Source: Candidatus Altimarinota bacterium
GTDB lineage: Bacteria > Patescibacteriota > Gracilibacteria > UBA1369
Direction: 5' to 3'
Length of the DNA: 64,000 nt
NCBI GenBank assembly: GCA_963677745.1
Contig: OY782391.1
Span: 1,088,001 to 1,152,000, forward strand
The translations under genes and the position numbers were made by a program. Shown piece by piece: positions 59,966-63,485 of the stretch. The notes below the pieces were generated by a model. That model saw only the letters and a program-made list of their open reading frames with translations. It was not told the DNA's origin and did no database searches. The number at the start of each line of letters is the position of its first letter. The first letter of the stretch is position 1.

Positions 59966-61066
59966 TCAGTATGATTTGAAAGCTTTTTGCAGCTTTTTTC
60001 GATTGGCCCAGGCCAGTACCAGTATAATTCCCAGGTAAAGTGTTTCAGCCGGGCCGGTTTTGGCCAATTTCTTGGGAGCATCGGCGGCCGGTTTGAGTTC
60101 CTCAGTTACGGTTGTTTCCTGAGTTTCTGCAGGTTCCAGAGAGGTGATAGGCTCATTATTCTGGGCAGTCATTGTTTCATCAATGGCACTGGTCAGAACA
60201 TTTTCAGTGGTTTCGCCGGCGGCCGTTTCAGGCGTATCAGTGCCGGTTTCGGCCGGTGTTGTCAGAGTGGGACTTCCCGTCCCTACGGTTATGGAAGCTT
60301 TAAGCGCAGGATTATAGGTGGAGTAATATTCAAAAGTGCCATCCTGGTCGAACAAATAACTGAAACTCTGTCCGCTGGTAAGTACCGGGCTGGCAAAACT
60401 TTGTCCGTTGGTGGATGAGCCGATAATAGTCTGATCTTCAGTGCTGGTATTGGTCCAGACCACAGTTGCTCCTTTATCAATTTTTACTGTCGCGGGTTCA
60501 AAGCCAAACAGGGACACGTCAACATTGACGCTGGGGCCTGTACTTTGTGCAACGGTTTCGGGGGTAGTGGAAGAAGTATCGGTACTTTTTTCAGCTACTG
60601 TGGAAGTGTCAGTGTTTGTGGCGGTTTCAGTAGAGTCCAGAGAGGCTACCCCGGCTGTTGGTGTAGTCTGATTGGTTTCGCTGTTTACAGGCGTGGAGCT
60701 GAGCAGGTCGGATTTGAGTTGTAACGGTTCCTGTACCCAGTAAGCCACATATCCGGCAATGCCGACGATAACCAGTGCGGCGATAATTTTTGTCTTGGGA
60801 ATTTTGTCTTCCGATGGTTCAGTTTCTTCCGCGACTACCGCTGCAGCTTCTTCAGCTACTGTTGTTTCTGCAGCCGGGGCTGTTTCTGTCTGCACGGCTA
60901 CCTGGTCGGCGGTTTCAGCGGTTTTATGTGAAATATTCAAGGTGGTCGCCGGTGCTGCTTCCGCTGAACGCATGGTGGCTGGTCCGGTCTGTTCAAACAG
61001 ATCCATCTGATCGGGACTTACCGGTGTTTCGGTTGTCTCTTCTGGCTTGTTTTCTAGCTCGGTCAT
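59966..61066 (-). CDS. surface protein with cupredoxin-like fold and C-terminal xxKTGP sorting-like signal
   Basis: FEPATVKIDKGATVVWTN...SGQSFSYLF...GTFEY; C-terminus LAKTGP + hydrophobic helix + basic tail; internal TM. Confidence 0.75.
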   Translation of the reverse strand: MTELENKPEETTETPVSPDQMDLFEQTGPATMRSAEAAPATTLNISHKTAETADQVAVQTETAPAAETTVAEEAAAVVAEETEPSEDKIPKTKIIAALVIVGIAGYVAYWVQEPLQLKSDLLSSTPVNSETNQTTPTAGVASLDSTETATNTDTSTVAEKSTDTSSTTPETVAQSTGPSVNVDVSLFGFEPATVKIDKGATVVWTNTSTEDQTIIGSSTNGQSFASPVLTSGQSFSYLFDQDGTFEYYSTYNPALKASITVGTGSPTLTTPAETGTDTPETAAGETTENVLTSAIDETMTAQNNEPITSLEPAETQETTVTEELKPAADAPKKLAKTGPAETLYLGIILVLAWANRKKLQKAFKSY

Positions 61067-61189
61067 AGCTTTATTGGTATTTGATAAATCTTCACAGTAT
61101 ATCACAAAAACACCCCGGGATTAATGTTCCGGAGGCCTGTGCAAGCCAAAAGGACTATACAAAAAAAAGAAATGTATTGAAACTCAAAA

Positions 61190-61446
61190 TCCCTGAGTAG
61201 CAGAATCAATTTTAGGCATCAGATTGACCAAGTCCAACGGTAACCGTTTTAAAAGTTACATGCTTTCATTTTAATTGGGAAAGCAACTTTATAAATAAAG
61301 ATTGTTTTCTTTTTAAACTGAAAAATCCTGAAATTATTTCTGTACCCAGGGAAGAGGTTGCCTTTGGTCATACAGGGTTGCCTTGAGGACTGTGTGCCAA
61401 AAAAATTTTAGGCAAAAGTCACAGTCCAAAGGCAACCTTCTCCCTG
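61190..61446 (-). ncRNA. putative structured ncRNA, unit 3 of tandem array
   Basis: Leader hairpin 61347-61446; closing stem 61327-61352 pairs with 61190-61216; internal hairpins. Confidence 0.5.
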
Positions 61447-61479
61447 TGATAGAAACGCTGTTTTTTAATGTTCAAAAAA

Positions 61480-61843
61480 CTCCCTAAACTAACCTCAATC
61501 CCTTAAAAGTAACTTACAACCTGGAAGATTAAATTTCCTTGATAGTCACTTTTCCTTAAGCATTGCTGTTTAAGATTAGTAATTCTCTTTAATATTCTTT
61601 TCTTTTTTATCTTGCGATAAAAATCAGATTGGAACTTAAAGGTCTGTTCCGAAACTTCTCTATCCGGCTTTTGGATAACCACCGAACTGAATATTTCAGC
61701 ATTCTGAAAACCTGGTAGATTTTCAGTAACGACTTTTAAAGTAATTTTAGCTAGTTTAGGGAGAGAGTTTACACAAAATCGTATCAGCTTGATTTTGTGA
61801 AATGTTAATTCCACTTCGTTTTATGCAAACTTTCTCCCTAGAC
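61480..61843 (-). ncRNA. putative structured ncRNA, unit 2 of tandem array
   Basis: Paralogue of 61877-62250 with compensatory changes; 15-bp closing stem 61749-61763 with 61480-61494; two GCAA tetraloops. Confidence 0.7.
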
Positions 61844-61876
61844 CGGTCCTCCTTTTTTTCAAGTATCAATTTAAGA

Positions 61877-62250
61877 CCCCCTAAACCAACTGTCGCCCCT
61901 TAAAAGTAGAAAGCATCTCAGAAGCGCGAAGGATCCAAGATAGAAACTTTTCCCTGAGCATTGCTGCCCAAGACTAGTAATTCTCATTAAACTTTCTTTC
62001 TTACACTTTGTCTTGCGACAAAAGTACAAGATAAAAAATCCAAAAGTTTTCCCCAAAACCTCTTTACTCGGCCTATGGATAACCACCGAACCGATAATTT
62101 TGGCATCCCAGGAACCTGGTGGACTCCTGGAAACGGCTTTCAGGTAACTTCAGCAAGTTTAGAGGGAGAGTATGGCTTCAATCGCAGGTTTGGTTTTTAT
62201 GTTTGTTTTTAAAACCGGTTTGTTATTGAAACCAAACTTTCCCCCTAAAT
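61877..62250 (-). ncRNA. putative structured ncRNA, unit 1 of tandem array
   Basis: Shares tggataaccaccgaac, agcattgctg, tagtaattctc and cccttaaaagta blocks with unit 2; covarying stems. Confidence 0.7.
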
Positions 62251-62301
62251 CTCAATTGGTTACTTGTTAGTTTTTGTCTTTATTTCAAATATCATCATAC
62301 T

Positions 62302-62330
62302 ATGATATACCATAGATTTCACCCTGTCAA
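62302..62330 (-). promoter_or_regulatory. sigma70-like promoter pointing into the ncRNA array
   Basis: Minus strand TTGACA (62330-62325), 17 nt, TATCAT (62307-62302). Confidence 0.65.
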
Positions 62331-62434
62331 GTGTCTAATCCGAAAAAAACTGAAATAGTCCAAATATAGTTTGAAATCTGCATTTGTTTCAGTTAAATTT
62401 ATGCCGCTCACCAATCAAAACCCACCTCAATTGT

Positions 62435-62509
62435 GCCGGGGTAGCTCAGTGGTAGAGCGAAGGACTGAAAATCCTTGCGTCGCCAGTCCGATTCTGGCCC
62501 TCGGCACCA
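62435..62509 (+). tRNA. tRNA-Phe(GAA)
   Basis: GCCGGGG-TA-GCTCAGTGGTAGAGC-G-AAGGA-CTGAAAA-TCCTT...GCCAG-TCCGATT-CTGGC-CCTCGGC-ACCA. Confidence 0.93.
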
Positions 62510-62612
62510 TATACTTCGTAAAATTAACTTCAAACTGGCTGATTTAAAACGTTTGAAGTCTTTATTATGTACCGGGAAAATGGTAAAATGTTAAGATCAT
62601 TTAATTATTACC

Positions 62613-63485
62613 ATGAAGCCAATTGCCAAACTTTTTCCGGGCCAACAGACTGATGACAATTCCGGAGTCCGCAGGATCAACCGCGGAAACAAAACCATCG
62701 AAGAAACCCGGCAGGGTTATGCCGACGTCATAGAATCAATGGAACGGCATGAGTTACTGGGCCCGCTGGTTCGCGGGGGATTTCATAACGGAGTCAGGCA
62801 GGAGGGATTGTTACGCCGGCTAATTTATAAGCTAAATGCCGAGCTTTATGACCGGAGATTATTGAAAGAATCTGAATATCATAATCAGGACGCCGCACTT
62901 CGTTCTCTGGAACATATTTTTGAAACCACCATGAAGGACGTGATAGCCCTTTGGGCCAGGCTTTCCGCTCAAAAAGTTGAATGGAATGAACTTTGCGCCG
63001 TTCTGGAGGATTATTTTTATGACCTGGCCAGTCTGTTTGGAGTGGAACAGCAAATGCGCTTTTTTACACGCAACTGGTTTGATACCTATGCCCGTAATGA
63101 ACTGAATGCCAGCGCACTGGCTTCCTATCAGCAGTTGTCTTATCTTGGTGCGTCCGGCAGTGTTGAAGATCAGCAGAAAATCGCCAAGGAAATTCGGGGG
63201 AACATTACCTCAATCAATAATAAGCTCAGAAATCTTCCCATAAAACCTGAACATTACCCGGCTTTCAGCAAACTAAATCCCCAGAGCAAAGTACTGATAC
63301 AGCCCGGCAATCCCTCGTCTCCCAATCCCCATCATCTGGTGGTGAGCATGAAACACGGAAGGGGGGAAACGGCCAAAACCGAAACTTATCCTTCACCCTG
63401 GGTCGAACCGCCCTTTCTGCCCAAACCGGCCGAACAGAAAAAGTCCTGGTGGGGTAAACTTTGGGGGAAACTAACCGGTAAATAA
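62613..63485 (+). CDS. hypothetical protein
   Basis: 290-aa ORF ending in the amphipathic KKSWWGKLWGKLTGK. Confidence 0.6.
   Translation: MKPIAKLFPGQQTDDNSGVRRINRGNKTIEETRQGYADVIESMERHELLGPLVRGGFHNGVRQEGLLRRLIYKLNAELYDRRLLKESEYHNQDAALRSLEHIFETTMKDVIALWARLSAQKVEWNELCAVLEDYFYDLASLFGVEQQMRFFTRNWFDTYARNELNASALASYQQLSYLGASGSVEDQQKIAKEIRGNITSINNKLRNLPIKPEHYPAFSKLNPQSKVLIQPGNPSSPNPHHLVVSMKHGRGETAKTETYPSPWVEPPFLPKPAEQKKSWWGKLWGKLTGK

Follow-up and report, generated by a model that had tools for sequence, protein, structure and literature searches.

We analyzed a tandem array of three structured RNA units on the minus strand of a 64,000-nucleotide (nt) stretch of DNA from a Candidatus Altimarinota bacterium (contig OY782391.1 of assembly GCA_963677745.1, positions 1,088,001 to 1,152,000), which is referred to below as the window and whose positions serve as coordinates. 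The source organism is a small bacterium of the candidate phyla radiation, and its genome (G000) is a single contig that is 97.9% complete. The array is real and conserved and is probably expressed. In each unit, a 5' purine strand and a 3' purine strand compete for one pyrimidine strand that lies between them (the shared strand), and the cassette has five parts: the 5' purine strand, a variable hairpin top, the shared strand, a core, and the 3' purine strand. Pairing of the shared strand with the 5' strand forms a leader hairpin, and its pairing with the 3' strand closes the core. We tentatively read the RNA region (61100-62330, minus strand), in which no convincing gene was found on that strand, as a single transcription unit for stable, highly structured non-coding RNAs. 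These RNAs represent a new family in an unusual but intelligible maturation cassette.

A first-pass annotation of the window had proposed this arrangement, and all three strands of each of the three units (A1, A2, and B) were located on the minus strand at the places it had given, together with its opening word AGGG(A/G)GAA(A/G)GUU in every unit. The A1 leader hairpin with its variable top spans 62157-62251 and is formed by the 5' strand (UUUAGGGGGA at 62240-62249) and the shared strand (62157-62170, containing CCCUCUAAAC), whose alternative partner is the 3' purine strand GUUUAGGGGG at 61877-61886. The A1 core (61879-62154), a candidate stable RNA of ~276 nt, has a GCAA-loop hairpin and several covarying helices (z = -2.39). 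After a 34-nt spacer (61843-61876), the A2 leader hairpin (61754-61844) combines UCUAGGGAGA at 61833-61842 with CUCCCUAAAC within the shared strand at 61754-61767, and the A2 core (61482-61751) is a candidate stable RNA of ~270 nt, likewise with covarying helices (z = -3.08). The A2 3' purine strand (GUUUAGGGAG at 61480-61489) is directly followed by a run of six U's (61474-61479; both elements together 61474-61489), and the spacer between A2 and B measures 33 nt (61447-61479); the first-pass annotation had given ~35 nt for the spacers. Many G-U pairs occur in the helices of the units, which identifies the minus strand as the RNA strand.

The A1 and A2 units (~400 nt each) are paralogs with a mean column identity of 82% in the pairwise alignment, and their differences often fall at complementary positions. 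The unit-specific variants described earlier are present, as the G/A difference between A1 and A2 occurs in all three strands of each unit. A repeat search of the array returned the direct repeats D1, D2, and D4, spaced 397-407 nt apart, and the inverted repeats I1 and I2. Unit B is alignable to the A units at its start only. Its leader region (61344-61446) includes the 5' strand (61426-61446), the shared strand (61344-61367), and an inner alternative partner (61377-61394). The 21-nt 5' strand pairs with 61347-61367 (inverted repeat I2, 90% complementary), positions 61344-61352 can pair instead with the 3' purine strand at 61190-61198, and the segment 61347-61352 is able to pair with either of them. 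The B core (61186-61343) carries a conserved UGGUCAAUCU word that is also present in single-unit relatives, and it ends with the 3' purine strand and four U's (61186-61189). The array thus has three units, as first annotated, but they are not equal: two paralogs are followed by a different, older terminal element.

Both pairings are conserved and covary in a close alignment of 11 A units from 6 organisms and in a wider set of 23 A-type units from 17 genomes or contigs, which establishes the mutually exclusive pairings as a genuine feature of the family. Strands of the wider set were extracted by position, because MAFFT (alignment A5) had shifted the 5' strand between two subgroups. Among the 11 A units, the leader helix (23 pairs) was 92.4% paired, compared with 41-54% when the partner was slid, and 13 of its pairs changed on both sides, a number reached by none of 500 shuffles. 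The closing helix together with ten inner helices (111 pairs) was 91.7% paired, compared with 40-52% for slid partners, with 54 pairs changed on both sides. The closing helix itself (helix 1; 28 pairs) was 91.4% paired and contributed 15 such changes, including compensatory pairs at columns 96, 97, and 103. The leader and closing helices overlap at columns 95-105 only, corresponding to 11 of the 28 closing pairs, and therefore approximately 17 closing pairs do not compete with the leader.

The 23 units of the wider set gave a corresponding result for duplex energies. The energies of the 5' and shared strands taken from the same unit summed to -417.9, compared with a permuted mean of -370.0 (standard deviation 12.1; 3 of 20000 permutations as low), and those of the shared and 3' strands to -512.3, compared with -393.5 (standard deviation 13.7; 0 of 20000), although kinship of the related sequences inflates the significance of these permutations and of the shuffles above. 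Homologs lacking either the leader or the 3' complement had been named as the case that would speak against the proposal, and all 23 extracted A-type units carry all three strands. In G191, G190, G189, G019, and M054_A1, the 5' strand is not the same as the 3' strand, and each still fits the shared strand, which favors pairing over a protein-binding word common to both. Unit B was compared in seven sequences, where both pairings were ~96% paired (29-53% when slid), with weak shuffle controls (11 and 16 of 500) and a U/C switch at column 112 that covaries with both partners. A loop-loop pairing (CCACC/GGUGG) was also considered and was rejected, as it is not retained in the wider family.

BLAST, a search with a strict DNA pattern, and a scan of metagenomes located the same array in four related genomes and on a single metagenome contig. 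As judged from the sequences surveyed, the RNA operon appears to be specific to one family of Peregrinibacteria/Peribacteria-type bacteria. The tRNA gene that anchors the locus is present in 34 of the 36 genomes of this family, and 30 loci were retrieved. An A unit in close or diverged form occurs in 18 of these 30 loci, the diverged form having the loop word GUCCCCCAGG and lying downstream of a divergent TTGACA promoter. One or two additional units stand ahead of the A unit in many family loci; these first units have the same leader and closing strands but a different core, probably a paralog of the A core. The last element of an array is either a B-type unit or a leader-type hairpin with six to eight U's immediately behind it, and some genera have one short B-type unit alone. 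The first-pass annotation had suggested comparing array length and unit order in related genomes, and the family loci show one to four units beside the divergent tRNA-Phe gene, with an order that differs between species of one genus, as would be expected of independent modules. The A paralogs stand in opposite order in G002 (L003/L075) relative to the window (61472-62252), the A1 unit of the window being 83% identical to A2 of G002 and 69% identical to its A1. The two A units of G014 are recent duplicates (86%).

Searches that reached beyond the family found no such array outside it. The strict DNA pattern matched 7 of 205 genomes of the order, five of them true and two (G103 and G109) coding repeats. 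Genome contigs yielded 18 stretches: four are true matches, identical with G001, G002, G014, and G024, and 14 come from unrelated taxa, ~20 chance matches having been estimated. Metagenome contigs gave three stretches, one true (L054) and one without similarity (L055). The remaining one, L053, is a near-copy of L054 riddled with error-like single-base deletions and was left out of all counts. Viral contigs yielded nothing real (one strict-pattern stretch, unmatched by the model R1, plus zero stretches). R1, which covers 129 positions of the A core, matched G000, G014, and G024 only among 151 genomes of the order and G183 among seven loci; it gave 13.8 bits to a diverged A unit visible by eye, and is therefore too narrow for its negatives to mean much. 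The automated three-strand scans were noisy, with cross-unit pairs and chance 9/10 matches, and were used to locate units only. In 401 genomes of the class, the shared-strand word with up to two mismatches gave 10 single matches outside the family, and the reversed control word matched ~30 genomes. At the examined shared-word loci of other families and at a second, off-array match in G013, the leader partner reached at most 10 of 14 positions, compared with 13 of 14 in two in-family arrays. BLAST also gave matches of ~33 nt and 88-89% identity to parts of A2 at G000:C1:201684-201716 and, in another family, at G027:C14:76450-76481, which may be due to chance.

The units match no known RNA family. 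At the gathering score, Rfam 15 gave two matches in the window and 20 in 20 related loci, all of them tRNAs. With E up to 10, the best non-tRNA match in 60500-63000 was a generic hairpin model at 27.2 bits against a cut-off of 79, and the A1 leader matched generic hairpin (miRNA precursor) models weakly. A housekeeping RNA in disguise was rejected, as RNase P RNA, transfer-messenger RNA, and a sub-threshold 6S RNA candidate all lie elsewhere in the genome. The 6S candidate (G000:C1:602254-602414) scored 41.1 bits against an Rfam cut-off of 46.4 (E = 3.5e-7). The signal recognition particle (SRP) RNA models RF00169 and RF01854 had no match anywhere in genome G000, whose SRP RNA may be divergent; the units themselves were rejected as SRP RNA, since no SRP model matched the region with E up to 10. 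Protein coding was rejected as well: two local open reading frames (ORFs) have no Pfam match, and no reading frame is conserved across the 23 A-type units, in which the longest stop-free run is 31-105 codons. A clustered regularly interspaced short palindromic repeat (CRISPR) array and a type III toxin-antitoxin repeat RNA were rejected in view of the ~400-nt units with conserved cores, the sole CRISPR-DR match reaching 20.4 bits against a cut-off of 41. A literature search, with subscription journals outside its coverage, returned no description of such an RNA, and the passages on RNA, intergenic, non-coding, repeat, or transcript matters in the main text of the Peribacteria genome paper (PMC4736985, supplements outside coverage) hold nothing on the locus.

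Evidence at the RNA level comes from contigs assembled from four runs of two metatranscriptome studies. All array-fitting contigs fall entirely within A cores, six in A1 (61879-62153, 61929-62152, 61906-62148, 61995-62154, 61899-62050, and 62021-62149) and three in A2 (61483-61739, with 0 differences, 61482-61699, and 61545-61747). Five of the A1 contigs end at 62148-62154, which is 2-8 bases past the shared strand on its 3' side. The contigs that extend furthest 3' stop at equivalent G's of the 3' strand, at 61879 in A1 and at 61482/61483 in A2. Neither loose ends at these contig stops nor joints were seen in the four runs. The leaders, spacers, unit B, promoter, and downstream gene had no contig over them, which by itself says nothing about their transcription, and contig depth does not rank the parts. 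These contigs hint faintly at discrete, processed core RNAs in the libraries, and the stable RNA seems, on this slight evidence, to keep part of the 3' strand and to leave out the shared strand. As regards stalk cleavage, the contig ends at 62148-62154 and 61879 (A1) and at 61739/61747 and 61482/61483 (A2) lie in or beside the closing helix without a 2-nt offset, although contig ends need not be the true ends of an RNA. The first-pass suggestion of a common processing signal that releases individual RNAs thus gains a weak hint from these contigs, which are confined to the cores of A1 and A2 and have ends close to the closing helix, and the circular form suggested with it was not borne out, as no back-joined form occurs among the contigs of the four runs. 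Three further RNA-library contigs match the GNRA-hairpin segment 61976-62045 only and then diverge from the window; they probably derive from more distant A-RNA relatives in the same libraries.

Folding calculations place the two pairings close together. When either pairing was forced, the minimum energies differed by -6.5 to +3.6 kcal/mol in all 11 A units, and in folds of growing prefixes the shared strand was paired with the 5' strand at every length tested. A co-transcriptional leader that is later displaced, one of the two possibilities raised by the first-pass annotation, fits these in silico prefix folds and the near-equal energies, but the displacement itself is what we infer. The genome encodes the enzymes that such a maturation could use. 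RNase III gave one match above the cut-off (genome positions 1178541-1178930; 140.9 bits), and of two RNase Y-like genes (G000:C1:263847-265352, 588.8 bits, and 714814-716304, 353.4 bits) only the first is above the curated cut-off; an RNase J gene and RNase P RNA are also present, and RNase E/G was not found in the genome. In Bacillus, the RNase III/J/Y toolkit matures ribosomal RNA (rRNA) and small cytoplasmic RNA via stalks formed by the 5' and 3' flanks.

We consider it plausible, if somewhat short of probable, that the leader holds the shared strand, that the 3' strand takes it over, and that the resulting stalk is processed by nucleases. During transcription, the shared strand would pair locally with the 5' strand, and the leader hairpin so formed would prevent it from pairing wrongly with purine-rich segments of the core while this is still being made. 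When the core is finished, the ~17 non-competing closing pairs would bring the 3' strand to the base of the leader, from where it could capture the shared strand through three-way branch migration, extending the closure to a stalk of ~28 pairs between the 5' and 3' flanks. RNase III would then cut this stalk, and RNase J and/or RNase Y would trim the ends, leaving core RNAs of ~270 nt that retain part of the 3' strand. How these steps follow one another, which enzymes act in them, and what role the cores may play are matters that we infer. A wider reading, which we regard as rather doubtful, makes the cassette a portable maturation module, that is, a three-strand branch-migration device that times or licenses the nuclease release of an undescribed class of expressed, structured RNAs of ~270 nt. 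It would be reused for at least three cores (A-type, first-unit paralogs, and B-type), and the cores, confined to one family, could be ribonucleoprotein scaffolds, ribosome-associated RNAs, or ribozymes.

Several observations weigh against exchange followed by stalk processing. The near-equal energies provide no thermodynamic push towards exchange, and with the flanks included the minimum-energy fold retains the leader in both A1 and A2. The RNA-library contigs carry no strand or true-end information and have no DNA run alongside. Their ends exclude the shared strand, and the closing pairing would therefore be at best transient; moreover, the 5' contig end is not where RNase III would leave it after a simple cut with a 2-nt stagger relative to the 3' end, so that an extra trimming step of ~8 nt on the 5' side must be assumed. 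Unit B shows little variation. In G011, the same change occurs in both purine strands and is uncompensated in the shared strand, which would fit a shared recognition word as well as pairing.

The last observation bears directly on an unlikely alternative, in which there is no functional exchange and the cassette is a static processing signal, the leader being a nuclease substrate that is cut off and the two purine strands sharing a recognition word of the UUAGGGAG type. Besides the parallel, uncompensated change in G011, this explanation would account for strands that are conserved beyond what complementarity needs, including a recurrent A.C mismatch in the leader, and, weakly, for the apparent lack of the shared strand in the stable RNAs. 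Yet the 3' strand covaries with the shared strand precisely where the 5' strand differs (the five cases from G191 to M054_A1 given above), and the permutation result for the shared and 3' strands also speaks against a recognition word, as do the compensatory changes seen at columns 96, 97, and 103. The run of six U's after the A2 3' strand points in another direction, to an attenuator in which the leader serves as anti-terminator and the shared/3' pairing with its U-run as terminator, setting read-through within the array and into the downstream genes (the 379-amino-acid ORF, cdaA, and ybbR). Four to seven U's follow the 3' strand in all seven B units as well, and in G007, G182, and G016 the terminal leader-type hairpin runs directly into six to eight U's. 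We nevertheless judge attenuation improbable: in A1 and in the majority of A units no U-run follows the 3' strand; 80-300 nt would lie inside the putative terminator stem; the downstream gene carries a promoter-like extended -10 of its own, located just past another hairpin with a U-run; and the cores are too large and too conserved for spacers. The terminator scan called no minus-strand terminator.

Two further explanations assign the strands to other partners or other chemistry. If the stable RNA keeps part of the 3' strand without its cis partner, as the contigs weakly suggest, the free purine tail of the core could bind the shared strand in a second molecule, so that dimers or larger assemblies form, or else the pyrimidine-rich 3' end of 16S rRNA. 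The tail reads GGGAGGA in many relatives, which resembles a Shine-Dalgarno sequence, and the 16S 3' end here is ...ACCUCCUUUCU; however, the tails in the window (AGGGGG and AGGGAG) match the 16S tail poorly, and purine/pyrimidine helices mimic Shine-Dalgarno/anti-Shine-Dalgarno pairing by composition alone, so that we hold such trans pairing to be quite improbable. Anti-Shine-Dalgarno mimicry as such was rejected for its weak match in the source genome. Self-cleaving or circularizing RNAs that release themselves (a ribozyme or a rolling-circle relic) would explain the tandem units and a cleavage-like 5' end that adjoins a helix formed with upstream sequence, and the GNRA loops and A-rich bulges are of a kind usual in large folded RNAs. 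Against this very improbable origin stand the lack of a back-join or other joint in the four RNA runs and of any Rfam ribozyme match with E up to 10, the non-conserved sequence at the putative cut site (columns 101-112), and the chromosomal position of the locus, which is syntenic across the whole family.

Polycistronic operons of stable RNAs with processing stalks are, as such, a known kind of system. RNase III cuts the stalks in rRNA-operon transcripts and in the precursor of the small cytoplasmic (SRP) RNA of Bacillus subtilis, after which RNase J1 and exonucleases act. The array resembles these systems in that several stable RNAs would derive from one promoter, the flanks of each RNA pair in a long helix, genes for RNases III, J, and Y are encoded, and contig ends lie in or beside the helix. 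It differs in the upstream third strand that competes for the 5' flank, which makes stalk and leader hairpin mutually exclusive, and in its RNAs, which match no Rfam family, are not rRNA, tRNA, or SRP RNA, and whose cleavage is predicted. The transient pairings between leader and rRNA that guide the folding of 16S rRNA in Escherichia coli offer another parallel, as a leader segment that is removed later pairs with a strand needing another partner in the later fold; here, unlike in that system, the strands in competition are almost identical to each other, and each unit of the array has the same design.

The first-pass annotation had compared the units loosely to hok-type messenger RNAs, which have metastable 5' hairpins and a 5'-3' fold-back. 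The likeness holds for the fold-back idea alone, in that the 5' side folds locally at first and a remote 3' segment provides an alternative pairing. The units are tandem, large folded RNAs without a conserved toxin frame (no reading frame is conserved in the 23 units), and it is the 3' arm of the leader, not the extreme 5' end, with which the remote segment pairs. Another comparison is with OLE, GOLLD, ROOL, raiA, and HEARO, large bacterial non-coding RNAs whose functions are unknown or have been studied recently. The RNAs of the array share their size class, many covarying helices, GNRA loops, a tRNA-adjacent position, and a narrow lineage, but have no match in Rfam 15, and to our knowledge none of the five has tandem cassettes of this kind, with leader and closing strands. 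The novelty lies in the RNAs themselves and in a third strand that competes for pairing and is reused around different cores.

It is rare for a large bacterial RNA with strong covariation to belong to no known family, and several such RNAs described earlier have proved to be ribozymes, guide RNAs, or RNA assemblies. In the present case, an operon of such RNAs is maintained next to tRNA-Phe throughout a whole family of uncultivated bacteria with small genomes, and its RNAs are present in environmental RNA libraries. With the same three-strand cassette on every unit, the problem of keeping a long RNA foldable and then excising it from a precursor becomes directly testable. If the exchange is functional, the cassette would be a natural example of toehold-type strand displacement in RNA maturation.

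The one strong promoter of the RNA operon lies at 62302-62330 on the minus strand and is of the sigma-70 type, with TTGACA at -35 (62325-62330), a 17-nt spacer, and TATCAT at -10 (62302-62307). With 11 of 12 consensus matches, it is the best among eight sites of the region, and relatives keep the same TTGACA and -10 layout at the corresponding place. A motif of the GAUAUUUGAAAUAAAG type, read by eye, follows in the 5' flank (62278-62293, minus strand). More generally, a (C/U)UUGAA(A)-type word occurs ~25-35 nt upstream of each leader, including directly after the promoter; its sites are 62278-62293, the spacers 61843-61876 and 61447-61479, and spacers of related loci, and it may be a cleavage or binding site. 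Upstream of the promoter, a divergent tRNA gene on the plus strand (62435-62506; Rfam tRNA match) has the anticodon GAA (Phe, read from the alignment) and anchors the locus throughout the family.

At the other end of the RNA operon, an imperfect G+C hairpin followed by a U-run (61101-61134, minus strand) is terminator-like by eye, and was not called by the terminator scan because its loop exceeds the permitted length. This hairpin and U-run (61096-61134) overlap the extended -10 of the next gene (TGTGATATACT, 61096-61106), which likely starts at the ATG at 61064-61066, not at the listed GTG at 61105. The genes 3' of the RNA region are a 379-amino-acid ORF without Pfam domains, cdaA, and a ybbR-type gene. 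The 379-amino-acid ORF was rejected as a dedicated partner of the RNAs, since it is present in 35 of the 36 family genomes and has paralogs and is therefore not RNA-specific. In two related loci, L068 (1-1040; G023) and L090 (region 0-215; G019), tandem partial copies of the 3' half of tRNA-Phe lie between the intact tRNA gene and the operon promoter.

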